A DNA stretch of 64,000 nucleotides, from NCBI GenBank assembly GCA_937928765.1, contig CALFVX010000004.1, positions 15,799-79,798 on the forward strand. The letters run 5' to 3'. Origin of the DNA: an uncultured Endomicrobiia bacterium. GTDB lineage: Bacteria > Elusimicrobiota > Endomicrobiia > DTEH01. The translations under genes and the position numbers were made by a program. A model generated the notes under the pieces. It searched no databases. It was not told where the DNA came from and worked only from the letters and a program-made list of their open reading frames with translations. Shown in pieces: positions 5,760 to 52,710 of the stretch. Each line of letters opens with the position of its first letter. Within the stretch, counting starts at the first letter, position 1.

Positions 5760-5806
5760 AAAATTTACCTATCTATTTATTAATTTTTTTCCTAAAAACC
5801 ACAAAA

Positions 5807-6979: not shown

Positions 6980-7149
6980 ATTATTATAAACACCTCCTTT
7001 GTTCTCTCATTAATAGGAGGGAAATGATTTTTCTTTCCACTCTATTACGAGTGGATTAAGGGGTATGTTATAAAAGTCTAACTTAATACATACTTGATAT
7101 GAGAAATTTTCTAAAAAAGTTACCAAAACTTTCCAACTGAGGAGGAAAA

Positions 7150-8169
7150 ATGAAAAGAAAAATAATTTTAATATCAATAATTTTTTTAATACTTTTTTTA
7201 GGTATAAAAAGTTATATTATGTCTCAACAGCAGAATAATCTTTCAGAACAACAAGTTGACCCTTTTAATGAAGCAGTGAAAAATATTTCTTCTTCTGATC
7301 CATACACAAGAAGACAAGCAGCTGAGCAGTTGGGTATGTTAAAAGATCAACGTGCAGTTGTATATCTTAAAAAACTTCTAAAAGATGAAAATCCGTATGT
7401 AAGACAGACAGCAGTAGATTCTTTAGGAATCATAAGAAACAAAGAAGTATTAGAAGATATTATAAAAGTTATAAAAACAGACAAAGAGCCGCAAGTAAGA
7501 CAATCTGCAGTTGTCGCATTAGGATATATAAATGATCCGAGATCTGTGCCTGTACTTTTAGAATTGCTAAAAGATGAAGATGAACTAATTTCAGTTAAAT
7601 ATGCAATATGTAATACCTTAAGTATAATAAGGTCTACCGAAGCAATACCTGTTTTAGTTTCTTTGTTAAAAACATCACAAGATATAAGTCTAAAAAAAAG
7701 TATAATTTATGCTTTGGGGAAAATACCTCACAAAGAAAGTGTGCAAGAGTTAAGAAGCATAATACTAGATAATCTTACTAATGAAGATATAATTATTGGT
7801 ATTCTTAGTGTTCTTACAGAAATAAATGATGTTGAAAGTATAGAAAAATTTTGGATAGTTTATTCTACAAATGTTGTATCAGAAAGGACAAAGTTTTATG
7901 CTGCATATGGAATAGCAAAGATTTCAAAAGACAAAAGTGTTCTTCCAATTATAAAAAAATCTTTGAAAAGTAATGATGAGAATATAAAAAATTCTGCAAT
8001 AGATGCAGCAAGGCTTATAGGTGATAAAGAAACCTTGAATATTTTAAAAAATATGGTTTTAGTTGAAAACTCTGAATACACTAAAGTTTTATTAGATATG
8101 GCGATAAAACAACTTGAGCAACAATTTCCTGCTCAAACACAACAAAAAACTTTACCTAAAAAACAATAA
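7150..8169 (+). CDS. Exported HEAT-repeat (PBS-lyase-like) protein
   Basis: Signal/anchor peptide. Repeated units such as RRQAAEQLG, VRQTAVDSLG and VRQSAVVALG. GAGGAGG RBS. Confidence 0.75.
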   Translation: MKRKIILISIIFLILFLGIKSYIMSQQQNNLSEQQVDPFNEAVKNISSSDPYTRRQAAEQLGMLKDQRAVVYLKKLLKDENPYVRQTAVDSLGIIRNKEVLEDIIKVIKTDKEPQVRQSAVVALGYINDPRSVPVLLELLKDEDELISVKYAICNTLSIIRSTEAIPVLVSLLKTSQDISLKKSIIYALGKIPHKESVQELRSIILDNLTNEDIIIGILSVLTEINDVESIEKFWIVYSTNVVSERTKFYAAYGIAKISKDKSVLPIIKKSLKSNDENIKNSAIDAARLIGDKETLNILKNMVLVENSEYTKVLLDMAIKQLEQQFPAQTQQKTLPKKQ

Positions 8170-8174
8170 AACAA

Positions 8175-8867
8175 ATGAAAAAATATTTTATAATCTTTAT
8201 TTTTTTAGTTTTAAATATTAGATTACTTTATAGTATGACTGAAATTGTATGTGTGAACAATCCTACTGCTGAAGTTGTAGATTATGGTATAGGTGAGATT
8301 GATATAAGACTTTATTCTTATGGTGGTATATTAAGCAGGTTTATTTTTGCTCCTTTTAATAGATTAAATTTCGGTGGAAGCTTAGATATTAATAAAATTT
8401 TAGGTACTGAAGAGCCAGAAATCCGAGATCCAGCATTTTATTTCAAATGGCGAGTTTTTGACGGAACACAGCTGTTTCCTTCGTTAGCGTTGGGTTATGA
8501 TGGCCAAGAATATAATTTTGTAGGATCAAGTTCTTTACCTGCGAAGGGATTGTTCTTAGTTTTTACAAAGAATTTATTTTTAGAAAAATTTTTTTGTGAT
8601 TTTGGAACCAATATTACAAAATATAACTCAGAAAATAGATTGTTTGGTTTTATAAATTTTAGATTTTTATACCAGGAAATATTTTCTTTTAGTTTAGAGT
8701 ATGAAAATATTGGCAAAAAAGAAATACAAAAAGTGAATTTAAAATTAGGTTTAATTTTAGCAAAAGTTTTGTCTATAGATTTTATTTTCAACAATTTATA
8801 TTCTGAAGAATCTTACAGCAAAATAGACAGGCAAGTAAGGATTAATTATTTATACAAATTTTTTTAA
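8175..8867 (+). CDS. Hypothetical outer-membrane beta-barrel-like protein
   Basis: Signal peptide, alternating aromatic/hydrophilic pattern, C-terminal ...YLYKFF beta-signal-like end. Confidence 0.45.
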   Translation: MKKYFIIFIFLVLNIRLLYSMTEIVCVNNPTAEVVDYGIGEIDIRLYSYGGILSRFIFAPFNRLNFGGSLDINKILGTEEPEIRDPAFYFKWRVFDGTQLFPSLALGYDGQEYNFVGSSSLPAKGLFLVFTKNLFLEKFFCDFGTNITKYNSENRLFGFINFRFLYQEIFSFSLEYENIGKKEIQKVNLKLGLILAKVLSIDFIFNNLYSEESYSKIDRQVRINYLYKFF

Positions 8868-33621: not shown

Positions 33622-33867
33622 ATGAAACTGAAAAGAAAAACAATTTTTTTAGGAATGTTGTGTATAGTAGTTTTGCCAGGATTGATTTTTGGTCAAACAG
33701 GACAACCAGTTAATAGCTGGGTTTGGGTAACTTCCGCACCATTAGCTGCAGCGTCTGGTGTTGCTGTTTGCTGCTACTTTATTTCCTTGACCCCACAACA
33801 ACGGCTTGACATCCTTCAGTATTTAAGAGAACAGTTCTATAAGATAAAAGAGATAAAAGGAGGTTGA
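33622..33867 (+). pseudogene. Truncated paralog of the N-terminus of the giant surface protein, fused to unrelated sequence
   Basis: First ~52 aa (signal peptide + GQTGQPVNSWVWVTSAP...GVAVCCY) parallel aa 1-55 of the 34826 ORF (AQTGQAINSWVQLTTAP...GVCVVYV). It then diverges and stops. Confidence 0.5.
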
Positions 33868-34210: not shown

Positions 34211-34417
34211 ATGAAGAAAAGACGAGTTATAATGGAAAGGATTGTGAAAATTTCAGAGTCAAACGATGATTGGAACATAAAGTTCTGGCAAAAACTTGGG
34301 GTAACACGCAGATTTTCAGTAGCATGGGAGATGTTACGAGATTATGAAAAAATAAGAGGGAAAAATGCAATTAAGTTCAGACTACAAAGATCTGTTGAAA
34401 ACATTCAACAAATATAG
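34211..34417 (+). CDS. Small hypothetical protein, putative partner of the downstream nucleotidyltransferase
   Basis: 68-aa ORF overlapping the NTase gene by 53 nt. FWQK...RLQRSVENIQ tail resembles small proteins I recall upstream of such NTases (from memory, unverified). Confidence 0.45.
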   Translation: MKKRRVIMERIVKISESNDDWNIKFWQKLGVTRRFSVAWEMLRDYEKIRGKNAIKFRLQRSVENIQQI

Positions 34418-34826
34418 GGTGAAATACATAATTGTAGGGGCATATGCTGTGATTTACTATACGGAGCCACGATATACAAAAGATATAGATATTTGGATAA
34501 AACCTGATAAGGAAAATGCAATTAGGGTTTATAATGCGTTAAAAGAATTTGGTGCTCCATTGAGAAATATTTCCATAGATGATTTTACTAATAAAAATTT
34601 GATTTATCAGATCGGTGTGGAACCTGTAAGAGTTGATATAATGATGGATTTTGGAGGTTTAAATTTCAATTCGGCATGGAAACGAAGAAAAAGGATAAAA
34701 TACGGTGATGTACTTACTAACCTTTTAAACATAAAAGACCTGATAAAAGTAAAAAGTAAGTTAAAAAGACCAAACGATATTTTGGATGTTGAAAAATTGA
34801 AAATGGTACTTAAATTGAAGAAGTGA
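34365..34826 (+). CDS. Minimal nucleotidyltransferase-fold protein (MNT/AbiEii-like superfamily, TA-like module)
   Basis: hG[GA]x(9-13)DhDh pattern (VGAYAVIYYTEPRYTKDIDIWI). Its stop TGA overlaps the ATG of the giant gene. Confidence 0.65.
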   Translation: MQLSSDYKDLLKTFNKYRVKYIIVGAYAVIYYTEPRYTKDIDIWIKPDKENAIRVYNALKEFGAPLRNISIDDFTNKNLIYQIGVEPVRVDIMMDFGGLNFNSAWKRRKRIKYGDVLTNLLNIKDLIKVKSKLKRPNDILDVEKLKMVLKLKK

Positions 34827-40183: not shown

Positions 40184-41524
40184 ATGAGTGATAAAGAATA
40201 TATTTCACCAAATAAAAAATTGTTAGTATTGCAGAAAGCGTTTGCATTATGTAAAGAAGTTTATCAGATTGTTAAAAAATTTCCAAAGAGTGAACTGTTT
40301 GGTATTACACAACAAATCAGACGAGCGGTAGTTTCTATAGTAAGCAGTATAGCTGAAGGTGCTGCAAGGACAGGTGGGAAAGAAAAAATAAAGTTTTTTA
40401 TTACAGAAAAAGGTTCTCTTACAGAGTTGGAAACACAACTGTTGTTAGCAAAAGAGTTAGAATATTACATTTATAATCAAGAAATATTTAATAAAATCCA
40501 AAAAGTATGGAAGTTATTAAATGTATTGATTCAAAGCAAAAGAAAAATTATCAAAAATTTTCTTTTGTTATTTTTAACTATCACCTACCTGCTATCACCT
40601 AACTGCTGTTTGTTATTTTCCGCATTCCAAAGCACTGACTGGTCTGTTCGTGCAGAAAGTATGGGGGGTGTTTTTACTGCCATAAGTGATGAACCATCAG
40701 GGGTTTATTATAACCCTTCAGGGACAAGATTTGTTGAAAAAAATTTTGTCCAAACAATGTATTCAAAACCGTTTTTAGGTATTGAAGATATCAATATTTA
40801 TCTTATGAACATAGCAGGAGTTTTTAAAACAAAATATATTTCTTTAGGATTTAGTTATGGAAGTTATAATGTAGAAAACAATTTGTATAAAGAAGATACA
40901 ATTATTTTTAATCTTAGCAAAAAATTGGATGAAATTTATTCTGAATTACCGGCTTTAAGTTTAGGTATAAATTTTAAATATCTTACTAAAAAATATACTT
41001 TTGATGATGAAATCTTAAATTTAGAACCAGAATTGAAAGATAAAAAATCAAGATCAGTTGTATCATTAGATTTTGGTGCAATATACAAATTTTTAGATGA
41101 TAAGATGTCTGTAGGTTTTGCAGTGAAAGATTTTAATCAACCAAATATTGCTGTTTTGGAAGAAAACAAAGATATAATACCAATGGTAGTATCTTTTGGT
41201 AGTGCATACAATTTTGGTGATATAAAAACAGGACTGTATTTTGAAGATTTTACTTTAGGCATAGAGTTAAGGTATAGAAACCAAGATTGGGGTGATGAAA
41301 ATACAAAATTTTTTTATGCATTAGCTATTGAGACATATTTAAATTTTCATACCATACCTATAAGGTTTGGAATAAACAAAAATTCTTTTAATTTAGGTTT
41401 TGGATATCAAGGGATAAAAATTTCTGAAAAACTTAACCTTGGTATAGTTTATAATTTTGGGTTACCAATAGTGTATAATGATACTTTTGGTAATCATAGA
41501 ATTTGTGTAGATGTAAAGTTTTGA
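40184..41524 (+). CDS. Uninterrupted ORF joining a four-helix-bundle protein (23S rRNA IVS-type, TIGR02436-like; ~40184-40525) to a PorV/PorP-like OM beta-barrel protein (possible own TTG start at 40526)
   Basis: N-part: FPKSELFGITQQIRRAVVSIVSSIAEGAAR...GSLTELETQLLLA. From 40526: signal-peptide-like MIQSKRKIIKNFLLLFLTITYLLSPNCCLLFSAF, then AESMGGVFTAISDEPSGVYYNPSG and terminal ..VDVKF. Confidence 0.6.
   Translation: MSDKEYISPNKKLLVLQKAFALCKEVYQIVKKFPKSELFGITQQIRRAVVSIVSSIAEGAARTGGKEKIKFFITEKGSLTELETQLLLAKELEYYIYNQEIFNKIQKVWKLLNVLIQSKRKIIKNFLLLFLTITYLLSPNCCLLFSAFQSTDWSVRAESMGGVFTAISDEPSGVYYNPSGTRFVEKNFVQTMYSKPFLGIEDINIYLMNIAGVFKTKYISLGFSYGSYNVENNLYKEDTIIFNLSKKLDEIYSELPALSLGINFKYLTKKYTFDDEILNLEPELKDKKSRSVVSLDFGAIYKFLDDKMSVGFAVKDFNQPNIAVLEENKDIIPMVVSFGSAYNFGDIKTGLYFEDFTLGIELRYRNQDWGDENTKFFYALAIETYLNFHTIPIRFGINKNSFNLGFGYQGIKISEKLNLGIVYNFGLPIVYNDTFGNHRICVDVKF
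40581..40608 (-). repeat. Right inverted repeat of the four-helix-bundle cassette (inside the ORF, encodes part of the signal-peptide-like segment)
   Basis: The reverse complement of tcacctacctgctatcacctaactgctg matches 40131-40158 (cagctgatagtttatagcaggcaggtga) at 23 of 28 positions. Confidence 0.55.
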
Positions 41525-41525
41525 T

Positions 41526-41580
41526 ATTAGCTGGTAGGTGGTAGTTAGAGAAAAATGGTTGTATTCAAAGGTGATAGAAA
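41526..41580 (+). repeat. Purine-rich element copy e (B-type module), starting 2 nt after the stop
   Basis: attagctggtaggtggtagttagagaaaaatggttgtattcaaaggtgatagaaa. Confidence 0.45.
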
Positions 41581-41614
41581 TTTTTGTTCATTGTTTTAAT
41601 ATTAATGCTAAAAT

Positions 41615-42973
41615 ATGATTTTAATTTTATTTCTTTGTTTTTTTATAACTTGTATTTCTTATTCTTCAGAAATAAATGTTTATTTTACTGACCCAAGCAG
41701 TTTTCTTCCTTCATTAAGTGCACTTTCAACTCACCAAAAACCTATAGATTTTGCATTAAAAGAGTTTATAGAATCAGTACCTGCAGGAACTACGATGTAT
41801 GTTTGTATTTACGAAGTTAATAATACAACAATAACTTCTGCGGTGGACAATGTTATAAAAAAAGGTGTAAAAGTTTATTCTATTTTTGATAAAGATGTTT
41901 CTACTGCTGTATTTAAATCAAGTTTTGAGTGGAAAAAACTTGGTTCAAGCAACATATTGATGCATAACAAGTTTGTGGTAGTTAAAAGTTCAAAAGTGTG
42001 GAGTGGTTCGTACAATTTTACAGTTTCTGCAACTTATCAACAGGATAATTTTTGTGTAGAGATTTTTTCAAAAGAACTTGCTGAGATTTATGAGAAAGCA
42101 TTTTTGTATATGTGGGGATCAACAGGAACAATAACTATCGAAGATTTCAACGGAAAACAAACATTTTTATCTGACGGGACAAAAATAAGTGTATATTTTA
42201 ATCCTTACTTAAAACCAAAAGAATTAAAAGATGTTTTAGTTGATATTTTGTATGACAAATACTATGAAAAACCTATGGTAAAAAATTTATACTTTTCAGT
42301 TGCATGGTTTACATATAATGATATTTTAGACAAACTAATATTATTAAAAAATGAAAATGTAAAAATATACGGCATAATAGACGATGATAGTATGAATTTT
42401 TATGTTTATCAAAAATTAATATCCTATGGTATAAATATTTATTTTGATTCACGCAGAACTTCTTATGGTGAAGGACTTATGCACCACAAATTTTGTGTTT
42501 TAGACCCTTATGCAGAAAGCCCAAAAGTTATCTGCGGTTCTGCAAACTGGACACAGCAAGCGTTAAGCTCTTCTGGCGGAAACTATGAAAATTTGATTGT
42601 TATAGAATCAAGAAAAATTGCTGAAGTGTTCTACAAAGAATTTTTAAGGTTGTACAATAAAACAGTATCACCACAACTTGTTAATACAACTGATGAGTTA
42701 GTTGAAGATATTTTGTTTTATCCTAATCCTACAAAAGAAAGGTTAAATATAAAATTTAAACCCAACGATGGAGTTAAAGAAATAAAATTTTTGTTAGTCT
42801 CACTTTATGGTGTAAAAATTTTTGAACAAAATTTAAGTTTTGTTCCTGTGGTGGAAAATAAAGTTGAGTTATATTTGTCTAAAGAAATGAAAAAAGGAAT
42901 TTATTATGCAATATTAAGAGTAAAAAGTAGCCAGTATAGTAAAGATTATGTTAGAAAAATTGTTAAAGAATAA
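41615..42973 (+). CDS. Secreted phospholipase-D/HKD-family protein (Nuc-like nuclease or phosphodiesterase) with T9SS-type C-terminal sorting domain
   Basis: Signal peptide. HKD motifs from 41963 (HNKFVVVK..WSGSYNFT) and 42482 (HHKFCVLD..CGSANWT). C-terminal LFYPNPTKERLNIKF...GIYYAILRV. Confidence 0.8.
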   Translation: MILILFLCFFITCISYSSEINVYFTDPSSFLPSLSALSTHQKPIDFALKEFIESVPAGTTMYVCIYEVNNTTITSAVDNVIKKGVKVYSIFDKDVSTAVFKSSFEWKKLGSSNILMHNKFVVVKSSKVWSGSYNFTVSATYQQDNFCVEIFSKELAEIYEKAFLYMWGSTGTITIEDFNGKQTFLSDGTKISVYFNPYLKPKELKDVLVDILYDKYYEKPMVKNLYFSVAWFTYNDILDKLILLKNENVKIYGIIDDDSMNFYVYQKLISYGINIYFDSRRTSYGEGLMHHKFCVLDPYAESPKVICGSANWTQQALSSSGGNYENLIVIESRKIAEVFYKEFLRLYNKTVSPQLVNTTDELVEDILFYPNPTKERLNIKFKPNDGVKEIKFLLVSLYGVKIFEQNLSFVPVVENKVELYLSKEMKKGIYYAILRVKSSQYSKDYVRKIVKE

Positions 42974-43832
42974 AAATTGTAAAATTTTAGTATTTATATT
43001 TATTTTAGTAAATAGCGTGCTTTTTATAAATTGTAGTGTGTATGAAACATTACTTCTTCCATCTTCTGCTGAAGAGACAATGTTAATGCGATCTTTAGAA
43101 GTTTTATCTGAAGGTAGTGGTTCTTTAGCTAACAATCCTGCTGGTTGTGGTATGGAAAATAAAAAAAGTTTTTCTTTAAGTTATACTTATTGGCGTTTGA
43201 AAGAAAATTTGTATTCTTTAGGATTGTTTTTGCCAAAAAATTTTGCTAATTTAGGTTTTAAACTCAGATATGCTGACTTAGGTGAAACAGAGTTTGTCTT
43301 GGAAGAACCGATAAATGTTAGAAAAGAAAATTTGTATTTTATAATTTTTAACACAAGTTTAGGCAAAGAGATATTTTTCCCAGGATTTTTCTTAGGTATA
43401 GATTTAGGTTTAGGAAGTATAAAATTAAACCGTAACTTAAATTTGTTAAGTAGCAAACTTGGGGTTGGGTATATTTTAAATTTTACCTCTACGGAACTAC
43501 ATTTGGGTTGTAGTGTTGGAATAACTTTTTGTGATAGTGAGAGTTTAGGTGTTTACGGTTTAGGTATTAAATATTTTATTACGGAATATAAAACATTTTT
43601 TAATATATCTTATACCAAAAATGTTTACAGTTTTATAACTTTAGGGCTTGAATGCGAATTATGGCAAAACTTTGTACTTATTTCAGGATATGAGATTTCT
43701 AACGAAAAAAGTTTAATAAACTATTCTATAGGTGGAAAGATAATACAAAAAAATTTTGATATTATTTTGGCTACAAGGTATAACCAAGAACTTAACTGGA
43801 CAACAAGTGTCAGTGTTGGTATAAAATGGTAA
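42948..43832 (+). CDS. Small OM beta-barrel-like protein (PorV/PorP-like), possibly lipidated
   Basis: Signal peptide ending LFINC. GSGSLANNPAG motif, alternating beta pattern, terminal ..VGIKW. Overlaps the PLD gene by 26 nt. Confidence 0.5.
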   Translation: MLEKLLKNKNCKILVFIFILVNSVLFINCSVYETLLLPSSAEETMLMRSLEVLSEGSGSLANNPAGCGMENKKSFSLSYTYWRLKENLYSLGLFLPKNFANLGFKLRYADLGETEFVLEEPINVRKENLYFIIFNTSLGKEIFFPGFFLGIDLGLGSIKLNRNLNLLSSKLGVGYILNFTSTELHLGCSVGITFCDSESLGVYGLGIKYFITEYKTFFNISYTKNVYSFITLGLECELWQNFVLISGYEISNEKSLINYSIGGKIIQKNFDIILATRYNQELNWTTSVSVGIKW

Positions 43833-43879
43833 AACTTATAACTGACATTTTAAATTGGGTTAAATAGAGGTAAGTTAAT

Positions 43880-44932
43880 ATGTTTAAACATAAATGGTTT
43901 TTTTTAGGTTTATTCATTTTTATATCTCAAACATATCCACTACCAAAACTTGTAATCACAGAAGTTGCACCTGATCAATCAGATTATCAAGATTGGGTTG
44001 AAATTTTTTCTTATGATATAATTGTTTCAACAGATATTGTCAATTTAAGTTTAGAAATTACACATTATAATACAAGTAAAGTTTTTAGTTTTGGCAATAT
44101 AATTTCTTCAACAGATAGCTTTAAACTTGGGAAGGAAAAATTTATTATAGTTTATATAAATGCTAAAGAAAATATTTATTATTTTGATAATAAAGATAAT
44201 TTAGTTATAAAAACAACATTTACAATGACAACTTATGGTATGTACGCTACAGATGTGATAGTTTCGCTTAAAACTTCAACTGGTGCTTATATTGATGTTT
44301 TATGTTTTGCAGATAAAGATGGTTCTACTGGGTCTACTATAAAATCAAAATTTGATGATGTTATAAAAAATAACCAATGGATAGCAGAAGGATGGAATGT
44401 TAACACAAGTAGTTATACAACACCATGGGTTGTAAGTTCAGTTGGTGTTGATAATAATAAAACACTACAGAGAACAAAAACTTTTGAAGGATTACCTAGA
44501 GATACAAACCAAACAACCGACTGGGAAATAAAACCTGCTACTTTAGGTTATGGATATAAAAAAATTGTTTCAATAACACAAAATGTTGTAGAAGTAGATA
44601 AAAACACAAATCCGTTTTGTCCTGAAGATGAAACAAATAGTTTTGTAAAGATAAATTTTAATGTTGATGATTTTGATGCACAAAAGACGATTGTAATATA
44701 TGACATCTCAGGAAAAGAAATAATTAGACTTTTAGACAGAGACAAATTACCCAATGGAGATTTTACAACATACCGTCAACTAAGGTCTGGAAGTATCACA
44801 TGGGATGGCAGAACAAAAGATGGCAGTCGTGTTGCAACTGGAGTATACATTGTATATTTTGAAGCTTACAATCCAACTAACGCTAAAAAATATGTTGGTA
44901 AAGATGTTATTGTTGTAGGAAGAAAATTTTAA
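43880..44932 (+). CDS. Exported lamin-tail-domain (LTD)-like protein with FlgD-Ig-like C-terminal domain
   Basis: Signal peptide. LVITEVAPDQSDYQDWVEIFS (LTD-like start). Tail VIYDISGKEI...ITWDGRTKDGSRVATGVYIVYF. AGAGG RBS. Confidence 0.6.
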   Translation: MFKHKWFFLGLFIFISQTYPLPKLVITEVAPDQSDYQDWVEIFSYDIIVSTDIVNLSLEITHYNTSKVFSFGNIISSTDSFKLGKEKFIIVYINAKENIYYFDNKDNLVIKTTFTMTTYGMYATDVIVSLKTSTGAYIDVLCFADKDGSTGSTIKSKFDDVIKNNQWIAEGWNVNTSSYTTPWVVSSVGVDNNKTLQRTKTFEGLPRDTNQTTDWEIKPATLGYGYKKIVSITQNVVEVDKNTNPFCPEDETNSFVKINFNVDDFDAQKTIVIYDISGKEIIRLLDRDKLPNGDFTTYRQLRSGSITWDGRTKDGSRVATGVYIVYFEAYNPTNAKKYVGKDVIVVGRKF

Positions 44933-44978
44933 AGAAGTAAAGAAAGTAGCTGTTAAAAAGTATAAGCTATTGAGTAGG
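44933..44978 (+). repeat. Purine-rich element copy f, starting immediately after the stop
   Basis: agaagtaaagaaagtagctgttaaaaagtataagctattgagtagg. Confidence 0.4.
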
Positions 44979-44998
44979 AATTGATAAAAACAAAGTAT

Positions 44999-46483
44999 AT
45001 GAAAAATATATATTTTTTATTTTTATATTTCTTAATATTTTTTTCAAAAACATATGCGTTATTTGAATATAAAGAAATTTTTGCAAACAGTGCTGGATTA
45101 TGTGGAGCATTCAGTGCTGAAGAAGAAAATCTGTCAGTTATTTATTACAATCCGGCTGGGATTTTTAATATACCTAGATATAGTTTTTATTTTTCTAATA
45201 CAAACTTATATAATATATCTAAACTTGCAAACAACACATTTTGTTTTGCTACGGAAATAAGATCTTTAGGGAATATTGGATTTATTTATAACAATTTTGG
45301 TTTTGAACTTTATAAAGAAAATTTAATTTATTTTACTTATGCTAATAATGTTAAAGAAAAATTTTCTTTTGGGATAAATTTTAAGTTGCTTTCTGTTGAT
45401 ATAAAAAATTATGGTAGCAGAAGTTTTTCAAGTTTTGATATAGGAGTTTTAGCAAGGCCACATTATAAATTTCTAACTTCTTTTGTAGCAAAAAATATTT
45501 ATTCAGCAGATATTTCAGAAGATGAAGTAATACAGAAAGAATTAGTTGTAGGAAGTAAAATACAGTTTGTTAAAAATTTTTTAAGTTATATTGATGTTAT
45601 AAAAAATCCAAAAGATCCATTATTTTTCCGTATAGGTGAAGAAATAAGATATAGTTTGAATGATAAATTTTCAAGTTCTATTAGGTTAGGGATAGAAACT
45701 GCGGTAGAATACAAACCTGCAAGATATTCTTTAGGTTTTAGTTTAAGTTATAAAATTAAAGATTATGAATTAAATATTGATTACTCATACTTACATCATT
45801 TTGTTTTGTCAGGTCAACATCTAGTTTCTTTTGGACTAAATTTTGCTAAAAGACAAAATGTTTACTATGAAGAAACTGTTGATAAAAAAACAAAAAAAAT
45901 AGATGTCAAAAGAGAAACACAAATAATAAAAAAAGATTTACCTAAAAAAACAATAAATTTAAACACAGCGACTAAAGAAGAGATTGCAAATCTTCCTGGA
46001 ATTGGTCCTTATAATGCACAAAAAATTATAGAATATAGACAACAAATAGGGAAGTTTACATCATTAGAACAACTCTTAGATATACCTCGTATTGGTAGTT
46101 TAACCTTGCAAAGAATAAAACCATATATTGTGTTAGAAGAAGATTTACCTCAAAAACAACTTCAAGAACAAAGTTTTGGCCAGCAGACACAACAAGATTT
46201 GACCCAACCAAAAATAAACCAGCCAGAAGAAAAAGCTGTTGAACAACAAGAAAAACAAGAAGTTGTTAAACAAGAAAAAGAAGTTTCTAAAAAGAAATAT
46301 AATCTTAACGAAATTACTGAAGAAGAATTAAAAACTTTAGGATTTACTTCTTCTGAAGCAAAAAATATAATAAGATACAGAACAAGATTTGGTAATTTTA
46401 ATTCAGTAGAAGAAATTTATAAAATTCCTAATATTAACCGTAAGAATATAGATAAAGTAAAAAATTTATTGTATGTTGAATAA
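44999..46483 (+). CDS. OM beta-barrel-like protein fused to two C-terminal ComEA-type helix-hairpin-helix DNA-binding units
   Basis: Signal peptide ..SKTYA. GLCGAFSAEEENLSVIYYNPAGIFN. HhH-1 about 45952-46135 (INLNTATKEEIANLPGIGPYNAQKIIEYRQQIGKF), Q/E-rich linker, degenerate HhH-2 about 46300-46480. Confidence 0.7.
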   Translation: MKNIYFLFLYFLIFFSKTYALFEYKEIFANSAGLCGAFSAEEENLSVIYYNPAGIFNIPRYSFYFSNTNLYNISKLANNTFCFATEIRSLGNIGFIYNNFGFELYKENLIYFTYANNVKEKFSFGINFKLLSVDIKNYGSRSFSSFDIGVLARPHYKFLTSFVAKNIYSADISEDEVIQKELVVGSKIQFVKNFLSYIDVIKNPKDPLFFRIGEEIRYSLNDKFSSSIRLGIETAVEYKPARYSLGFSLSYKIKDYELNIDYSYLHHFVLSGQHLVSFGLNFAKRQNVYYEETVDKKTKKIDVKRETQIIKKDLPKKTINLNTATKEEIANLPGIGPYNAQKIIEYRQQIGKFTSLEQLLDIPRIGSLTLQRIKPYIVLEEDLPQKQLQEQSFGQQTQQDLTQPKINQPEEKAVEQQEKQEVVKQEKEVSKKKYNLNEITEEELKTLGFTSSEAKNIIRYRTRFGNFNSVEEIYKIPNINRKNIDKVKNLLYVE

Positions 46484-48719
46484 AAGATGTATTTTAATAA
46501 TACTTATCATTTTTTTTTACAAAAGTTTTCTAAAACCCCAACAAACAGACCAATTAGATATTCAATCTTTTACACAACAAGATGAAGAAATTCAGTTTGA
46601 AGAAGAGAAGTTGTTAGAAGAATATGAGCAGTTTTTAGACAAACAAGAACAAGAAACAACATTTACTGCAATACAGCAAGATCTAGATTTATTTCAAGAA
46701 GATGAAGATTTTTTAGAAAATTTAATAAAAAATCCAATAGATTTAAACACTGCAACATATTCAGAATTAAAATCTCTTCCTGGGATGACTGTAGAGCTTG
46801 CAAGACAGATTGTCCGTCAAAGAAGAATCCAACCGTTTAAATCAAAAAAAGATATTAAAAAACTTCGTGGTGTTGATGATGAAGTTTATAATAAAATTTC
46901 TTCTTATATTACAGTTAGAAAAATAAAACAGCCAAGGAAACTCAAAGGACAATTAAGATTAAGGTTAAAACAAGATGAAGTAGACATATCTGAACTTAAT
47001 AAAGTTAAATATTTAGAAAAAGAAAAGTTTAATCAGCCACTTTATTTTTATAACAGAACTTATCTTTCTTACGGAGATAATTTATCTTTAGGATATACTT
47101 TTTTACACAGGCCTATGGAAATAGAGGTTAATTATGAAACATTTAAATATTTTTTACGCAAATGGTGGATAAGATTAAATTCTATAATTTTTTTTGATAA
47201 AATTCTTTTAGGCGATTACAAAGCAGGTTTTGGTTACGGTTTGGTTTTTAATGAAAACTATTATATAAGCGGTTCTTTAAGCTCAGTAAAACCTAAGATG
47301 CGTGGCTTAAGAGAAGATAAGTCTTCTTATGATAACACAAATTTTTATGGGATAGGTTTTGAAAGTCATATTTCAGGTTTAGAATATTCAATTTTTTATT
47401 CACAAAAAGAGTTGATTTCAAAAACTTCTGTTTATTATGAAATAACTATAAACGAAACTTCTGGTGAAGAAAAGACGGAAACAAAAACAATTTCTTTAGA
47501 TGATTTGTTAGAATTAAGAAAACAATATATTGAATATGATAGAATATTAATGGATTATGATTTAAATATTCAAACATCAACTGTTGGAAAACTTCCTCAA
47601 AGTAAAATTCAAGAAAGACTTTTTGGTATAAACTTTTCTTTGCCGTTAAACATTTTAAAATTAGGTTTTTGTGGATATTATGCTGAATATGATAAAGTAT
47701 TTGACCCAATAACGGCTTTAAGATATGGGTTATATAAATATTCTGACAAATGGGGTAATGTTTATCGTGGAGATAGGTTAGCTGTAGGAAGTTTGTATTT
47801 TGATCTTCCTTTATACAAGTTTAACTTCTATGGTGAAATAGCTAAAAGTAATGCTTATTTTGATGAACAAAGTTCTACTTCAACATTTTCACAGCAAGGT
47901 TTTGGTTTAAACTTAGGTTTGTTATCTCATACAAAAAATAAAAAATTTTATTTTTTATACACATATCTTAGTCCAAAATTTTATTCACCTTTTGCTAAAA
48001 GTTTTACAATTTATGATTATCCAAATAATCAACAAGCAGTGAGATTTGGTAATGAGTATTTGTTAGGAAAATTAAATATAAATTTTTCTTACACAACTGG
48101 TGAAATTTTTGATAGCATCTTTAGTGGTGCTTCAACATCTGAATCTCCGAGATACCCATCAAGATATGAAGAGTTATTTTTTGAAACAAAATATAAAATT
48201 AAAGAAAATATTGAATTTTATTTTAGGAATGTAGATACTTTAAAAGAAAAATATATAAATTTAAAAACATACAATATTTCTCAACAAACAGATTATGTTC
48301 AAACACAACAGTTAAAAATAAACAATAGATACCAAATTTCATATAATATAACCAAAGATATATCTTTAAGGTGTAGGTTTGACCAACAATTTCAAAAGTT
48401 TATAAAATATAATGTGGAATATTACGGAGAACAACTGTGGACCGAAGTGAAATATAAAATTTATCCGTTTACAATTAATAGTAGATTTTGTGTGTTTGAA
48501 ACAGATAAAAATGTATATCTTAGCTATTTAGATCCTCAATGGTACAATGTCTATGTCGTTGAAACAGAAAATAATTCTTTTGGAGACAAATTTTATTTTA
48601 CTATATCTACCAAATTTTTTAAAAAATTTATTCTATGGTCAAGATATAGATATAAATATTACTTAAATTCAAAAAAGTTTGATAACGAGTTAAGATTTCA
48701 GATTGATTTTAATTTTTAA
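46473..48719 (+). CDS. Exported protein: acidic Q/E-rich linker, ComEA-type HhH unit, then a large (~600 aa) OM beta-barrel-like domain
   Basis: Signal peptide. IDLNTATYSELKSLPGMTVELARQIVRQRR (about 46735-46920). Y/F/G-rich alternating sequence with GDYKAGFGYGLVF. Terminal ..RFQIDFNF. Confidence 0.7.
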   Translation: MLNKRCILIILIIFFYKSFLKPQQTDQLDIQSFTQQDEEIQFEEEKLLEEYEQFLDKQEQETTFTAIQQDLDLFQEDEDFLENLIKNPIDLNTATYSELKSLPGMTVELARQIVRQRRIQPFKSKKDIKKLRGVDDEVYNKISSYITVRKIKQPRKLKGQLRLRLKQDEVDISELNKVKYLEKEKFNQPLYFYNRTYLSYGDNLSLGYTFLHRPMEIEVNYETFKYFLRKWWIRLNSIIFFDKILLGDYKAGFGYGLVFNENYYISGSLSSVKPKMRGLREDKSSYDNTNFYGIGFESHISGLEYSIFYSQKELISKTSVYYEITINETSGEEKTETKTISLDDLLELRKQYIEYDRILMDYDLNIQTSTVGKLPQSKIQERLFGINFSLPLNILKLGFCGYYAEYDKVFDPITALRYGLYKYSDKWGNVYRGDRLAVGSLYFDLPLYKFNFYGEIAKSNAYFDEQSSTSTFSQQGFGLNLGLLSHTKNKKFYFLYTYLSPKFYSPFAKSFTIYDYPNNQQAVRFGNEYLLGKLNINFSYTTGEIFDSIFSGASTSESPRYPSRYEELFFETKYKIKENIEFYFRNVDTLKEKYINLKTYNISQQTDYVQTQQLKINNRYQISYNITKDISLRCRFDQQFQKFIKYNVEYYGEQLWTEVKYKIYPFTINSRFCVFETDKNVYLSYLDPQWYNVYVVETENNSFGDKFYFTISTKFFKKFILWSRYRYKYYLNSKKFDNELRFQIDFNF

Positions 48720-48784
48720 AAAATTGTAAATTTTTAATATAAATAGTTGACAAAAATATAAAATTTATATATTTATATTTTATA

Positions 48785-48825
48785 CAGGGTTGGGTTTTTA
48801 TAATAATATCCCAAACTAAACCCTG
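48785..48825 (+). promoter_or_regulatory. GC-rich 5'-leader hairpin directly upstream of the pilin RBS
   Basis: cagggttggg...cccaa..aaccctg; CAGGGTT/AACCCTG and TTGGG/CCCAA pair. Preceded by TTGACA at 48747-48752, followed by AAAGGAGGTG. Confidence 0.4.
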
Positions 48826-48842
48826 AAAGGAGGTGAAAAAGA

Positions 48843-49313
48843 ATGAACAAAAAAGGTTTTACATTAATAGAATTAATGGTAGTAGTAGTTATTCTTGGTA
48901 TTCTTGCAGTAGCAATTGCTCCTCGTATTCCTGACCTTGTAAAAAGAGCACAAGAAGGTGCAACAAAAGGTTCGCTTGCTACTATGAGATCATCTTTAAA
49001 TATTTACTATGGTGATGTTGAAGGTTTTTATCCTATAGCAGGAACTGGTGTTATTACAAATGATTTTACTGCAGTGATGGTGCCAAGATATTTAAAGAAA
49101 ATTCCAGAAATAAGAATCCCAACTGCTCATCCTGCCGGAAATTTAAGTGGTGTTTATGGATATAGTTCAATTCCTACTGCTGCAGCAAATATTGTAGGCG
49201 ATGGTTCTCAAGCGTGGGGATATTGCGGTAATCCTACAAGTGCTGACTATGGTAATATTATAGTAAATTGTAGCCATACTGACACAAGAGGAGAGTATTG
49301 GTTTAATTATTAA
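48843..49313 (+). CDS. Type IV pilin / pseudopilin (prepilin-type N-terminal cleavage/methylation domain)
   Basis: MNKKG|FTLIELMVVVVILGILAVAIA class III signal peptide. Strong RBS. Confidence 0.88.
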   Translation: MNKKGFTLIELMVVVVILGILAVAIAPRIPDLVKRAQEGATKGSLATMRSSLNIYYGDVEGFYPIAGTGVITNDFTAVMVPRYLKKIPEIRIPTAHPAGNLSGVYGYSSIPTAAANIVGDGSQAWGYCGNPTSADYGNIIVNCSHTDTRGEYWFNY

Positions 49314-49334
49314 ACCAAATGTTTAGTATACTTT

Positions 49335-49365
49335 TTGGGGTGATTACAGTTAGTAATCACCCCAA
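49335..49365 (+). terminator. Strong hairpin between pilin and pilD (attenuator/terminator candidate)
   Basis: 13-bp perfect stem ttggggtgattac / gtaatcaccccaa with a 5-nt loop. The downstream T tract is weak (gtttacttt). Confidence 0.5.
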
Positions 49366-49376
49366 GTTTACTTTAA

Positions 49377-50120
49377 ATGATAATTTTTTTAATTTTTTTA
49401 TTAGGGCTTACCTTTGGCAGTTTTGCAAATGTTCTAATCTATAGAATACCAAAAAAAATTTCTATAATCTTTCCATGGTCTTTTTGCCCAAATTGTAAAA
49501 TCTCTATTAAATGGTATGACAACATTCCTGTTTTAAGTTATATTTTACTTTCGGGAAAATGTAGAAGTTGTAAAACAAAAATTTCTGTAGAATATCCGTT
49601 AGTTGAACTTTTAAGCGGAATATTAGCAGTTTTATGTTATTTAAAATTTAATATTTATACTATGTGGATTTTTTATAATTTCTTATTTGTTCTTTTAGTT
49701 ATTAGTTTTATTGATATAAAAACAACAGAGATACCAGATATACTTTCATATTATTTGATAATTTCAGGCATAATACTTTCAGTTTTTAATCCATTTTTAG
49801 GTAGAGATATTTTTTTAAGAATATCAAACTCTATAATTGGCGGGATAGTTGGATTTTTATTTTTATGGGTTATAGAATTTTCAAGCAGAAAAATTTTTAG
49901 AAAACTAGCTTTAGGTGGTGGTGATTTAAAACTTTTCTGTGCTGTAGGAACACATTTTGGTTTGTTTTCTATTTTTAAAATTTTATTTTATTCTTGTGTT
50001 GTTGCTTTGGTATATGTGCTAAGTGCGGGTTTGATCAAAAATAAAAAAATTTTTGGTGAATATATACAATTTGCACCTTTTGTTTCATTAGGATGTTCAT
50101 TTTATATATTAACTTTATAA
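49377..50120 (+). CDS. pilD: Prepilin peptidase (A24 family) with N-terminal zinc-binding CxxC pairs
   Basis: FCPNCK...CRSCK, DIKTTEIPD and GGGDLKLF aspartyl-protease motifs. Polytopic membrane protein. Confidence 0.88.
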   Translation: MIIFLIFLLGLTFGSFANVLIYRIPKKISIIFPWSFCPNCKISIKWYDNIPVLSYILLSGKCRSCKTKISVEYPLVELLSGILAVLCYLKFNIYTMWIFYNFLFVLLVISFIDIKTTEIPDILSYYLIISGIILSVFNPFLGRDIFLRISNSIIGGIVGFLFLWVIEFSSRKIFRKLALGGGDLKLFCAVGTHFGLFSIFKILFYSCVVALVYVLSAGLIKNKKIFGEYIQFAPFVSLGCSFYILTL

Positions 50121-50129: not shown

Positions 50130-50711
50130 TTAAAATTTGATTCTGAATTTGTTTTCACTGTCAGGAATTTTTTTAATAAATCTGTAGTTTAAAATTTTTT
50201 TATCTTTTAAAACAACATCTTTTTCTAAAGGAAAAATTTTGCAAGTTTCACAAGGAAAACTTTTGTAGTTTCTATAAAGCACTATATCGTCATAGATTGG
50301 ACTACCCCAAAAAGCTGTCTGGTATATATCAAAATTTTTAATTAAGAGAAAATTTTTTAAATTTTCCCATTGGTTGTTGAAAAAAATTTCTATTTTTAAT
50401 TCAGGCAAAAATTTTTGTGTATAGATTTTGTCCCACAGTTGCCAATCAATAGATGCTATAGCTGTTTGTAATTCTTTAAGTTTTGATGAAGAAGTAAATA
50501 TACAATGTGATTTTAACCAAGGATAACTTTTGAAATAAAATAAAAAATATTTTTTTTCTTTTGAATGATTAAGTTTTGCTGAAAATATAATTGTTCTATT
50601 TTCTTTATCAATTTCTATTGTAGATATATTTTTTTCTTTTTTACAACAAAATAATAAAAAAATTGTTAATATAATTATGGAATATGGAAATTTTTTTAAT
50701 ATTAAAATCAT
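50130..50711 (-). CDS. Hypothetical lipoprotein (likely start at Met-20 of the track ORF)
   Basis: MILILKKFPYSIIILTIFLLFC|C lipobox-like signal. No recognisable domain. Lies 28 nt downstream of the radical SAM gene. Confidence 0.5.
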   Translation of the reverse strand: MILILKKFPYSIIILTIFLLFCCKKEKNISTIEIDKENRTIIFSAKLNHSKEKKYFLFYFKSYPWLKSHCIFTSSSKLKELQTAIASIDWQLWDKIYTQKFLPELKIEIFFNNQWENLKNFLLIKNFDIYQTAFWGSPIYDDIVLYRNYKSFPCETCKIFPLEKDVVLKDKKILNYRFIKKIPDSENKFRIKF

Positions 50712-50739
50712 TACTTTATTAAATTTTTTATTTAAAAAT

Positions 50740-51831
50740 TTATTCCCAAATACCAGGAATTTTTTCACCGCAAAATTTGCATCTTCCTTTAATAATATTA
50801 TTTTCTAATACAGAATAACCAACACGTTTTATTAAAACTTTATTACATTTTGGGCAATAAGTTGACTCATACGGATGACCAAATACATTCCCAATATATA
50901 CATATTTTAGTCCAACATCTTTTGCAATTTTGTATGCTTTTTCTAAAGTTTCAACAGGAGTAGGTGGAATGTTTGTAATTTTATAAGTAGGATAAAATCT
51001 TGAGAAAAACAATGGTGTTTCATCACCTAAGTTTTCTTTTATCCAAACACACATTTTTTTAATTTCTTGCTGGTTGTCATTCATTGTTGGAATTATCAAG
51101 TTTACAACTTCAATAAACGCACCTTTTTGTTTTATATATTTTAACATATCAAGTACTGGTTGTAATTTTCCAAAAGCAATTTTGCGGTAAAAAGCTTCTG
51201 AAAAACCTTTTAAGTCAACACGAAATACATCTATGTATTTCACAAGTTCGTTTAAAGGTTCTAAGTTTATATATCCAGATGTAACCATCACATTTTTTAA
51301 ATTATATTTTTTTGCTTCTTTTGCTATATCTAACATATATTCATAAAAAATTACAGGTTCAGTATAAGTATACGATATACTTTTTGAACCAGAATCAATT
51401 GCCATTTTAACAACTTGTTGTGGAGTAAATTGGTATGTTTTTATTTCTTGTGGTGGTCTTTGTGATATTTCCCAGTTTTGACAGTGAATACATCTTAGAT
51501 TACATCCCGCAGTTGCTAAAGAAAAACTTTTACTACCAGCAAGCATATGAAATACAGGCTTTTTTTCTATAGGATCAACTGCAATTGATACAGGATTGTT
51601 ATAAGTCATAGTGTAAAGTTTTCCATTAAGATTTATCCTTACTGTACAATATCCTTTTTGATTAGGTTTTAATATACACTCCCGTGGGCAAAGTAAACAT
51701 TGGACTAATTTTTCTTTTTCATCTATCAGCTGCCAATATAGCGCTTCTTTATATTTTGTTTGTGGATATAAATTTGAATTAAAAATTATAAACTGTAGAT
51801 TTATTAAAAAAAATAAAATTTTATATTTCAT
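50740..51831 (-). CDS. Radical SAM enzyme of the AmmeMemoRadiSam / PFL-activase-like type, with a hydrophobic N-terminal leader
   Basis: CNLRCIHCQNW (CX3CX2C). C-terminal CPKCN...CKFCG zinc-ribbon-like pairs. N-terminus MKYKILFFLINLQFIIFNS. Confidence 0.8.
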   Translation of the reverse strand: MKYKILFFLINLQFIIFNSNLYPQTKYKEALYWQLIDEKEKLVQCLLCPRECILKPNQKGYCTVRINLNGKLYTMTYNNPVSIAVDPIEKKPVFHMLAGSKSFSLATAGCNLRCIHCQNWEISQRPPQEIKTYQFTPQQVVKMAIDSGSKSISYTYTEPVIFYEYMLDIAKEAKKYNLKNVMVTSGYINLEPLNELVKYIDVFRVDLKGFSEAFYRKIAFGKLQPVLDMLKYIKQKGAFIEVVNLIIPTMNDNQQEIKKMCVWIKENLGDETPLFFSRFYPTYKITNIPPTPVETLEKAYKIAKDVGLKYVYIGNVFGHPYESTYCPKCNKVLIKRVGYSVLENNIIKGRCKFCGEKIPGIWE

Positions 51832-51835
51832 AACT

Positions 51836-51922
51836 TATACTCTTTTTACTTTCAAACTTTTTTATACTACCTATCTTCTAACACCTAACCCTTTTTAACT
51901 TTGTCACTTTTTCGCTTTATAC
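51836..51922 (-). repeat. Purine-rich element copy g (A-B-A on the minus strand), starting right after the SagB-like gene stop
   Basis: Minus strand reads agtataaagcgaaaaagtgacaaagttaaaaagggttaggtgttagaagataggtagtataaaaaagtttgaaagtaaaaagagtataag. Confidence 0.5.
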
Positions 51923-52609
51923 TCATCTTGCATGATATCCTACTGGCATAATATAAAATGGTGTTTCATCATCAGGTAAACTAAGTAAATTTTTAACTTC
52001 TTTTTCGTTATATGAACCAACTTGAACTGTTGCTAACTTTAAAGCAGTAGCCTGTATGGTTAAATTTTGTGCTGAATGGCCTAAATCTATATTTATATAT
52101 TTTTCTCTTCCCCTGGAGCCATATCTTGATGTTTTATCGTACTTTGCTGCCCATACAAAACTCACTGGTGCTTGTGAAATAAAAAATTGGTTATAAGAAG
52201 CTTTTGTAAGTTCATCTCTTAAATCACCTAGTTTTATTAACTCTAAAGAATGAGTTTTGTGGTTATATTTATAAACTCCATTTTGTAAATTTTCTACATT
52301 ACCACATACAACATAAACCTCTAAAGGATAAATACCTCCTGCCGAAGGATAAACACGGGTTGCAGAAGAGATCCCATCTATTGTTAATCCTGCAGCAGAC
52401 CACAAAAGCTGGCTTAGTTGTTGTAAAGTCAATGGTTTTTCTTTATCAAATCTTCTTGTTGCTTTCCATTTATATATTGTTTCTTCAAAAGAAACATTGC
52501 TCTTATAGTAAGGTTTTGGAAGTGAGATGGTATTTTTTTGAGTAAAAATTAGTGTGGTAAGTAATATTGAGGATAAAACTATTAGATGAATTTTATGATA
52601 TATTTTCAT
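51923..52609 (-). CDS. SagB/ThcOx-type dehydrogenase (nitroreductase superfamily) with N-terminal signal anchor
   Basis: YPSAGGIYPLEVYVV and nitroreductase-fold motifs. Likely start MKIYHKIHLIVLSSILL (Met-19 of the track ORF 51923..52663). Confidence 0.75.
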   Translation of the reverse strand: MKIYHKIHLIVLSSILLTTLIFTQKNTISLPKPYYKSNVSFEETIYKWKATRRFDKEKPLTLQQLSQLLWSAAGLTIDGISSATRVYPSAGGIYPLEVYVVCGNVENLQNGVYKYNHKTHSLELIKLGDLRDELTKASYNQFFISQAPVSFVWAAKYDKTSRYGSRGREKYINIDLGHSAQNLTIQATALKLATVQVGSYNEKEVKNLLSLPDDETPFYIMPVGYHAR

Positions 52610-52710
52610 AATTTTAAATCCCCTTTTATTTTTTATAAGGTTATGCTGAATTTTATATATCAATTTATCTAATTTTAATAAAATATAAATTCTTTAAACC
52701 ACTAATTAAT

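Follow-up and report, generated by a model that had tools for sequence, protein, structure and literature searches.

The passage of DNA through the outer membrane has been worked out chiefly for one route, that of a secretin and the type IV pilus. ComEA is the periplasmic DNA receptor of competence, and its binding pulls the DNA inward. In Bacteroidota, a pilus-independent route is now emerging (PMC8459023, PMC12478041). Transformation of Riemerella requires an outer-membrane barrel, a surface protein and a protein with a helix-hairpin-helix (HhH) domain (in R. anatipestifer the essential HhH protein is RA0C_RS02645, with its HhH at amino acids (aa) 236-301), and a transposon screen recovered no pilus component among the essential genes (PMC8459023). 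The ddbABCDEF system of Bacteroides couples secreted nucleases to a dedicated outer-membrane DNA transporter for the consumption of DNA (PMC12478041). [quoted passage not shown] The locus described here lies in a 64,000-nucleotide stretch of contig CALFVX010000004.1 from an uncultured Endomicrobiia bacterium (Elusimicrobiota), and this whole stretch is called the window below. At positions 44999-48719, two adjacent genes encode beta-barrel proteins that are fused to ComEA-type HhH domains.

This two-barrel HhH module is a new architecture of known parts, namely the ComEA receptor and the PorV/FadL barrel, and is not a member of any described system. A first-pass annotation, made from the letters of the window alone, had taken the module and the genes around it for a cell-surface device that captures and takes up DNA. 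Every open reading frame (ORF) that it listed was present at its coordinates, and the parts and the general theme that it named stand. However, it probably placed the HhH domains on the wrong side of the membrane, and it overstated the unity of the gene array.

ComEA-type domains fused to two beta-barrels

The two genes overlap by 11 nt and encode the following proteins.

44999-46483 (+): small-barrel-HhH protein, 500 aa; 14-strand barrel and two ComEA HhH domains
46473-48719 (+): HhH-large-barrel protein, 748 aa; one ComEA-type HhH domain and a ~26-strand barrel; ends QIDFNF

The small-barrel-HhH protein consists of a signal peptide, a FadL/PorV-like hatch (YYNPAG), a 14-strand barrel (aa ~61-282, the last strand ending SFGLNF), a disordered linker, HhH 1, a Q/E/K-rich linker and HhH 2. 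HHH_3 (PF12836) matches it twice (3.5e-34, 117 bits versus a gathering score of 27), and TIGR00426 gives 89.1 bits, over the cut-off of 53.1. HhH 1 has the canonical LPGIGP, and the hairpin of HhH 2 is degenerate. Sequence-profile matches of the HhH in the PDB include ComEA 8dss (1.4e-22) and EEPD1 (3e-30). The AlphaFold2 model, based on 21 homologues, has 14 strands with a pLDDT of ~90 and carries the HhH domains on disordered linkers. Foldseek puts the barrel in the FadL family (1.5e-10), and PorV chains of the SprA translocon (8gl6_F and 6h3i_F) fit it best, with a root-mean-square deviation (rmsd) of 4.0-4.2 Å and a TMt of 0.59-0.63. As modelled, the small barrel is a 14-strand FadL-like fold with an N-terminal hatch; in sequence, it reaches 33.7 bits (2.8e-8) with PorV_fam, for which the cut-off is 90.

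In the HhH-large-barrel protein, a signal peptide and an acidic linker are followed by a ComEA-type HhH (aa 87-147) and the barrel (aa ~157-747). HHH_3 matches at 1.9e-14 (53.9 bits versus the gathering score of 27), and TIGR00426 gives 21.3 bits, under its cut-off. The AlphaFold2 model (15 homologues) has a helical HhH region and then 26 long strands, at a mean pLDDT of 66; single-chain barrels of 24-26 strands are among the largest known. No sequence family covering this barrel was found in Pfam, NCBIfam or the PDB, and Foldseek gave generic large barrels alone (FimD usher, TonB-dependent receptors, LptD; TM ~0.35-0.45). An identity as TonB-dependent transporter, usher or LptD was rejected, because the likeness is one of generic fold and no sequence family matches; for TonB-dependent transporters the fit is TM ~0.36-0.42 with an rmsd of 13-15 Å, and Plug, TonB_dep_Rec and CarboxypepD_reg have no Pfam or NCBIfam match at E<0.1 in 46473-48719. 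The fusions to barrels that the first-pass annotation had proposed for both genes are borne out by the HHH_3 matches, the predicted beta-barrels and Foldseek.

In FadL, PorV, OmpA, LptD, ushers and TonB-dependent transporters, the chain ends are periplasmic, and so are the accessory domains that some of them bear at the N- or C-terminus, such as the C-terminal domain of OmpA. Because 14-strand FadL/PorV-type barrels and even-stranded large barrels normally have periplasmic termini, the HhH domains of both proteins are, by analogy, most likely periplasmic, and the topology thus points away from the cell-surface position first assumed for them. With ComEA (PF12836/TIGR00426; structures 8dss, 8dfk and 2duy) the window proteins share the same HhH_3 domain, with family thresholds passed, and the likely periplasmic location; ComEA of Gram-positive bacteria and of Thermus is membrane-anchored as well. 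They are unlike ComEA in that the HhH follows a 14-strand barrel in the one protein and precedes a ~26-strand barrel in the other, in both cases as a covalent fusion, and they have neither an SLBB or oligomerisation domain nor a comEC gene nearby. The full-length ComEA model TIGR01259, which stands for a small protein that is either soluble in the periplasm or held in the inner membrane, gives 107.8 bits for the small-barrel and 33.9 bits for the large-barrel protein, both below the cut-off of 152.35.

Distribution of the family

The tethering of HhH domains to barrels had been pointed out as a departure from canonical ComEA. The fusion is real; however, judged from its sequence relatives, it is no local oddity but a large, widespread and unnamed family. 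When 1.84 billion representatives were searched exhaustively with a profile of the HhH-large-barrel alignment, 2,417 clusters matched at E<=1e-30, a figure that is an upper bound, as it may include proteins in which the HhH is repeated. The best 150 members all score at least 253 bits and nearly all are 600-830 aa long. An N-terminal HhH is kept in 144 of the 149 top representatives, mostly with a signal peptide and an acidic linker ahead of it; the fusion is therefore under selection and not the accident of a single genome. The named members, which bear generic names only, belong to Ignavibacteriaceae, Calditrichota/Caldithrix, Endomicrobia and Bacteroidota metagenome-assembled genomes (MAGs), and small-barrel-HhH proteins occur in Candidatus Thermochlorobacter too. 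A word-indexed homology search (alignment A2) added only six distant relatives, and a scan of a genome collection with a pattern inside the HhH (alignment A1) gave mostly ordinary ComEA of Firmicutes and Chloroflexi, the informative loci being L006-L009 and L011. No description of a ComEA-barrel fusion was found in the literature searched, whose coverage is incomplete.

The two barrels also travel together. Hidden Markov models (HMMs) of both barrel domains were built, and all fetched loci were scanned with them. A small PorV-like barrel gene lies directly upstream of the large-barrel gene in 10 of the 12 large-barrel loci, among them a Calditrichaceae MAG (L009), an unclassified bacterium (L005) and the metagenomic contigs L086 and L088, and the HhH is kept in 11 of the 12 large barrels. 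As the small barrels of L086 and L088 have no HhH, the constant feature is the barrel pair with at least one tethered HhH.

Five other contigs of Endomicrobia/Elusimicrobia (L001, L002, L006, L007 and L008) share a longer gene order, namely giant protein, barrel 1, (phospholipase D (PLD)-like protein and barrel 2), lamin-tail domain (LTD)-like protein, small-barrel-HhH, HhH-large-barrel, pilin and PilD; the PLD and barrel 2 genes are absent from L007. Because the same order recurs in these five contigs, the arrangement is far beyond chance, and the gene pairs noted in the window are indeed neighbours in related genomes. The synteny is nevertheless weak evidence of a functional unit within Endomicrobia, because the flanking housekeeping genes (the downstream Wzy/TPR, tRNA U5-methyltransferase and UvrD genes, and those for radical SAM and nitroreductase; L001, L002 and L006) also keep their order. 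Outside Endomicrobia, no PLD, LTD-like, pilin or PilD gene stands beside the pair in the loci examined. Of the single module first described, then, the two-barrel core recurs across phyla, whereas the whole array is found in Endomicrobia only.

Several other neighbours of the family were seen. A gene of the DUF4835/PorD type lies divergently beside the small-barrel-HhH gene in L005 (6727-7602, -), L009 (8972-9985, -) and L089 (5028-5951, -); these genes match NCBIfam T9SS_PorD at 3e-27, under its cut-off, and PorD is a periplasmic accessory protein of the T9SS (PMC8754138). In L005 and L009, the next gene after the large barrel is of the DUF6913 type. In L088, two genes at 4421-8458 (-) that are convergent with the barrel pair and immediately follow it encode NIDO/PKD proteins whose tails are CHU_C (type B CTD), and genes for an SNase and a TatD DNase (1832-3606) lie 2-4 kb from the small-barrel-HhH gene of L089.

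The gene array of the window

In the window, the pair is surrounded by the following features.

34823/34826-40084 (+): giant exported surface protein of 1753 aa, cargo 1; signal peptide and Kelch-like region at the N-terminus, seven or more FN3 domains, tail similar to T9SS type A/FlgD-Ig
40184-40540 (+): coding part for a four-helix bundle (23S rRNA-IVS protein/bAvd-like); PF05635, TIGR02436
40526-41524 (+): barrel 1, PorP/SprF-PorV-like; PF11751; ends VDVKF
41615-42973 (+): PLD/HKD nuclease-like exported protein, cargo 2; PLDc_2 twice, YPNP-type T9SS-like tail
42948-43832 (+): barrel 2, divergent PorV-like candidate, 294 aa; NNPAG motif; ends GIKW
43880-44932 (+): lamin-tail-like exported protein, cargo 3, 350 aa; FlgD-Ig/T9SS-like C-terminal tail
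48843-49313 (+): GspG/PulG-like prepilin; N_methyl, gspG
49334-49366 (+): intrinsic-terminator-like hairpin between the pilin gene and pilD; 14-bp stem with 6 GC pairs
49377-50120 (+): prepilin peptidase PilD; A24_N_bact, Peptidase_A24

From the giant protein through the large barrel, the genes lie on a single strand with tight spacing or overlaps and with no strong terminator between them. The three cargo-and-barrel pairs of the first-pass annotation were recovered, each exported protein with a CTD-like tail directly preceding a PorP/PorV-like barrel gene.

The giant protein contains seven fn3 domains (Pfam, 2e-60) and Kelch, and its orthologues show weak CHU_C in L001 and L002 and LTD as well in L001. 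Over their last ~60 residues, the three cargos score 17.5-18.1 bits with TIGR04183 versus a cut-off of 23 (giant protein, 18.0 bits and E = 0.002; PLD protein, E = 0.003). The PLD tail gives 23.7 bits (6e-5) with PF18962 versus 27, and the match of the tails to CHU_C (type B, PF13585) is only E = 0.02. The three tails can be aligned with one another, and they agree with a T9SS CTD in their place at the extreme C-terminus, in the YPNP motif and in the G.Y...K pattern. As all models stay below threshold, their sequences are described here as resembling T9SS sorting domains and not as members of them. The comparison with type B cargo is weakened, as the tails resemble type A/FlgD-Ig instead, again below threshold.

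Two PLDc_2 domains (8e-34, 116.7 bits) correspond to the two HKD motifs annotated in the PLD protein. The second motif, HHKFCVLD...GSANW, is canonical; in the first, HNKFVVVK...GSYNF, K replaces the canonical D. The best named relatives are NucT (3.8e-11), DrmC (9e-13) and, in the PDB, Zucchini/MitoPLD (1e-6), all below equivalog cut-offs, and membership of the Nuc/NucT/Zucchini-like branch, as a putative nuclease, is supported by these matches. Like the proteins of this branch, it has two PLDc_2 domains with HxK...GSxN motifs; unlike them, it joins both domains in one chain and has, in addition, a signal peptide and a T9SS-like tail, and it scores 42.9 with the NucT model versus the equivalog cut-off of 297. 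NucT of Helicobacter is reportedly a nuclease implicated in transformation. A reading as a defence system was rejected: only weak matches of the DrmC, ZacB and PbeA types were found with PADLOC, without partner genes, and such matches are expected because any Nuc-like PLD gives them. In two proteins of ~540 aa from other genomes (P0071 and P0072), PLDc_2 and a ComEA-type HHH_3 occur in a single chain, a domain combination that is independent support for a probable functional link between the PLD branch and DNA binding by HhH.

For the 350-aa protein, the lamin-tail assignment is indirect. Pfam LTD has no direct match at E<0.1 in 43880-44932, as opposed to what had been called there; however, aa 26-167 align (E = 4e-7) to a region of the L001 giant protein that passes Pfam LTD (PF00932; 8.5e-9, 36.2 bits versus a gathering score of 34.3), so that the domain is supported transitively. 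The protein is 45% identical to its L001 orthologue and matches FlgD_ig below threshold (7.8e-5), and no relatives of it were found in the PDB or among defence systems. In L002 (8034-10004), a more distant relative within Endomicrobia, the PLD and LTD-like proteins form a single chain of 656 aa, and the barrel 2 gene is missing; the fusion ties the two cargo proteins functionally.

Barrel 1 matches PF11751 (PorP_SprF) at E = 3e-13 with 50.4 bits, over the gathering score of 22.3. PorV_fam (NF033709; 4e-14, 52.8 bits, cut-off 90) and T9SS_PorP_fam (TIGR03519; 9e-13, 48.3 bits, cut-off 90.55) match below their cut-offs, and the HMM built from the barrel domain of the HhH-barrel protein matches at 4.6e-17. 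A barrel at 40526-41524 had been annotated, and this much is correct, but its ORF really opens at 40184 and reads without a stop from a four-helix bundle (aa 11-118; PF05635, 23S_rRNA_IVP, 1.4e-27; TIGR02436, 4e-27) into the barrel. TTG 40526, which yields a good signal peptide, MIQSKRKIIKNFLLLF..., is probably, judged from the sequence, the real start of the barrel 1 gene. A homologue of the four-helix bundle lies at the equivalent position in L007 (1691-1963), and two barrel genes of L001 (5576... and 8065...) bear short YKKLEIWQQ-like remnants at their called N-termini, which suggests that small four-helix-bundle genes were inserted repeatedly just upstream of barrel genes.

The barrel 2 gene overlaps the PLD ORF by 26 nt, exactly as annotated, and it has orthologues in L001 and L006. 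It is a probable beta-barrel and the weakest barrel call, with an N-terminal PorV_fam match only (2.8e-6, 27.1 bits versus a cut-off of 90) and an hhalign match to the HhH-barrel family at 78% probability (E = 1.9e-5, 233 columns).

The pilin matches N_methyl (1.3e-9, 37.6 bits versus a gathering score of 21.2) and, under cut-off, gspG (4e-12), and PilD matches A24_N_bact (2.7e-34, 117.5 bits) and Peptidase_A24 (9e-17, 61.8 bits). A pilin with a strong ribosome-binding site followed by pilD had been annotated, and the Shine-Dalgarno sequence (AAGGAGGTGA, 7 nt 5' of the ATG) is indeed strong. A promoter-like TTGACA lies at 48746; because the window is AT-rich, scanning it for promoters is not informative, with 97 sites versus 102 expected. 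With its own promoter-like site and Shine-Dalgarno sequence and the 14-bp-stem terminator on its 3' side, the pilin gene appears to be a separate transcription unit. Strong terminator hairpins are typical of highly expressed major pilin genes. Among window ORFs of at least 120 aa, no pilus assembly ATPase, platform protein or secretin accompanies the pilin, and its link to the barrels is unproven.

Outside the locus, Pfam assigned ORFs of 120 aa or more to housekeeping functions: the metabolism of amino acids, nucleotides and sugar nucleotides, together with ribonucleotide reductase, UvrA, UvrD and a tRNA methyltransferase. The first-pass annotation had proposed a search of the genome for the machinery of competence and secretion; none of comEC, comF, dprA, pilQ, a pilus ATPase, pilB/C/T or the T9SS core genes (SprA/Sov, PorK/L/M/N) was found among the same ORFs of the 64-kb window. 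The closest named homologues of the window proteins are from Endomicrobia/Endomicrobiia MAGs, with up to 86% identity. All 2-kb bins have 24-30% GC except the giant-gene region at 34-40 kb, which has 35-38%; amino-acid composition and foreign origin of the giant FN3 gene are both possible causes. An 81-aa ORF (33622-33867) is similar to the beginning of the giant protein, signal peptide included (phmmer, 1.1e-8), and a DUF6036 nucleotidyltransferase-like ORF (34365-34826) lies between it and the giant gene, its stop overlapping the start of that gene; the 5' end of the giant gene looks like the site of a rearrangement or insertion. On the opposite strand, a conserved trio of genes at 50130-52663, which is present also in L002, encodes a 212-aa protein that matches no family, a radical SAM enzyme and a member of the nitroreductase family; it is not obviously related to the locus.

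Possible functions of the barrel pair

From the domain content, the predicted barrel folds and the conserved adjacency of the genes we infer a topology, DNA binding, transport and any role of nuclease or pilin. The reading that we favour, tentatively and with something short of even confidence, is that the pair is an outer-membrane-tethered ComEA receptor or a port for the import of DNA. The conserved core would be a two-gene outer-membrane module (44999-48719). Its first gene would provide a 14-strand FadL/PorV-like barrel with one or two C-terminal ComEA-type HhH domains on a flexible linker, and the second, usually translationally coupled, would provide a ~26-strand barrel preceded by signal peptide, acidic linker and one ComEA-type HhH. 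Both sets of HhH domains would lie on the periplasmic face of the outer membrane as tethered equivalents of ComEA, where they may bind emerging double-stranded DNA and bias its movement inward, as ComEA does in canonical competence. DNA would probably pass or dock at the large barrel, either by itself or jointly with its small partner, and no PilQ secretin would be needed for the crossing. The Endomicrobia surface cargos (PLD, lamin-tail-like and giant FN3 proteins) might bind and cut extracellular DNA before uptake, each probably anchored or escorted by its own PorP/PorV-like barrel, and the imported DNA may serve transformation or nucleotide nutrition. In favour of import are the ComEA-type HhH domains and their retention across the family, the predicted barrels (good confidence for the small, moderate for the large one), the small barrel gene upstream of the large one in 10 of 12 loci, the adjacent PLD of the nuclease branch, the PLD-HhH chains P0071 and P0072, the SNase and TatD DNase genes of L089, and the precedents of Riemerella and Bacteroides. 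The stricter form of this idea, a secretin-independent port whose ~26-strand barrel passes double-stranded DNA while ComEA domains ratchet it inward at the periplasmic mouth, we consider rather unlikely, and we are equally doubtful that such a port would span the Elusimicrobiota and the FCB superphylum (Ignavibacteria, Calditrichota, Chlorobia-like lineages and some Bacteroidota).

The proposed role, passage of double-stranded DNA through the outer membrane to feed ComEA, is that of the PilQ secretin and the type IV competence pilus, and in Endomicrobia a pilin and PilD are adjacent. This situation is different from that of PilQ, however, in that genes for a secretin, an ATPase or a platform protein are missing from the window, DNA would have a single-chain beta-barrel as its candidate conduit, and the pair has no pilin genes nearby outside Endomicrobia. 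The resemblance to ddbABCDEF and to Riemerella lies in genes for secreted or surface nucleases beside a dedicated outer-membrane barrel for DNA, with a dispensable type IV pilus. DdbC/RA0C_RS04915 is described as similar to TonB-dependent transporters, with a carboxypeptidase-regulatory domain (PMC12478041, PMC8459023); in contrast to this, the large barrel of the window has no Plug, TonB_dep_Rec or CarboxypepD_reg and carries the HhH itself, and no homology between the two was detected.

A number of findings weigh against DNA import. The full array is kept in Endomicrobia only, the association with PLD, LTD and pilin being confined to one syntenic class and the pilin unlinked to the barrel pair elsewhere; in none of the loci examined is comEC, comF, dprA, pilQ or a pilus ATPase gene next to the pair. 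The HhH is absent from the small barrels of L086 and L088 and weak or missing in the large barrels of L002, L087 and L088, the G-I-G hairpins of HhH 2 in the small-barrel protein and of the HhH in the large-barrel protein are degenerate, and the model of the large barrel has moderate confidence (pLDDT 66). In addition, the PorD-like neighbour in three FCB loci hints at a role related to secretion, and a secretion or anchoring function of the pair is a serious rival. In a T9SS-like apparatus, the PorP/PorV-like barrels would bind the cargo tails and hold the cargos on the surface, with the HhH domains as accessories that have no part in DNA import; we think this unlikely, and we give no more credence to the accompanying idea that the large barrel serves the small one as translocon or attachment partner, analogous to SprA-PorV. 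The T9SS barrels PorV, PorQ and PorP-SprF (6h3i, 8gl6) do share with the window a FadL-like 14-strand fold and an N-terminal NPAG hatch motif, and the solved structures that fit the small barrel best are PorV chains of the SprA translocon. PF11751 is over threshold in barrel 1, PorV_fam matches three barrels, and the barrel genes directly follow three consecutive cargo genes whose tails are all CTD-like; the PorD-like genes (L005, L009, L089), the CHU_C cargo genes beside the pair in L088 and the precedent of type B cargo anchored by PorP (PMC9143113) point the same way. However, a ComEA-type HHH_3 is kept in nearly all family members, and the tails, closer to type A/FlgD-Ig than to type B, as well as the barrels stay under the curated cut-offs (for the NCBIfam PorV, PorP and PorQ models far below). 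In sequence, the large barrel is not similar to SprA/Sov, the window contains no T9SS core gene, and one of the window barrels bears ComEA domains. We know of no described PorV or PorP that carries such domains and of no protein-secretion role for the ComEA-type HHH_3. The host is a member of the Elusimicrobiota, whereas the T9SS has, to our knowledge, been described as confined to Bacteroidota/FCB.

Exposure of the HhH domains at the surface, where they would join the LTD protein, the PLD nuclease and a pilus in capturing extracellular DNA for uptake, adhesion or a biofilm matrix, seems improbable to us. It draws on the same HhH domains, on neighbours that are surface or secreted proteins with CTD tails, and on long, flexible, charged linkers that could reach outward (small barrel, aa 288-313 and 382-430; large barrel, aa 20-85). 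The known barrel families with these folds, however, have periplasmic termini, the strand counts in the models (14 and ~26) are even, and the pilin is a separate transcription unit that is unlinked to the pair outside Endomicrobia. It is quite unlikely, too, that the genes form no functional unit at all and are neighbours merely through the synteny of a narrow clade, with the pair serving, for example, in envelope structure or in tethering the nucleoid to the outer membrane. The flanking housekeeping genes do keep the same order in L001, L002 and L006, L007 is without PLD and barrel 2, and the neighbours of the pair are quite different outside Endomicrobia; nevertheless, the two barrel genes remain adjacent across phyla, the Endomicrobia genes from giant protein to large barrel are tight or overlapping on one strand without a strong terminator, and their functional themes (nuclease, LTD, HhH) converge.

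Implications

The arrangement of CTD cargo and PorP/PorV-like barrel is extended here to the Elusimicrobiota, and it bears on T9SS-like anchoring beyond the Bacteroidota. A family that hard-wires a DNA receptor domain to outer-membrane barrels is, moreover, a concrete candidate for the outer-membrane step of DNA uptake. Endomicrobium symbionts keep comEC, comF, dprA, PulG-like pilins and pilD, and their outer-membrane route for DNA is stated to be unknown (PMC8809381). If the proposed import function is true, a port with tethered ComEA would answer this puzzle, and would explain the uptake of DNA in lineages without a complete type IV pilus machinery.

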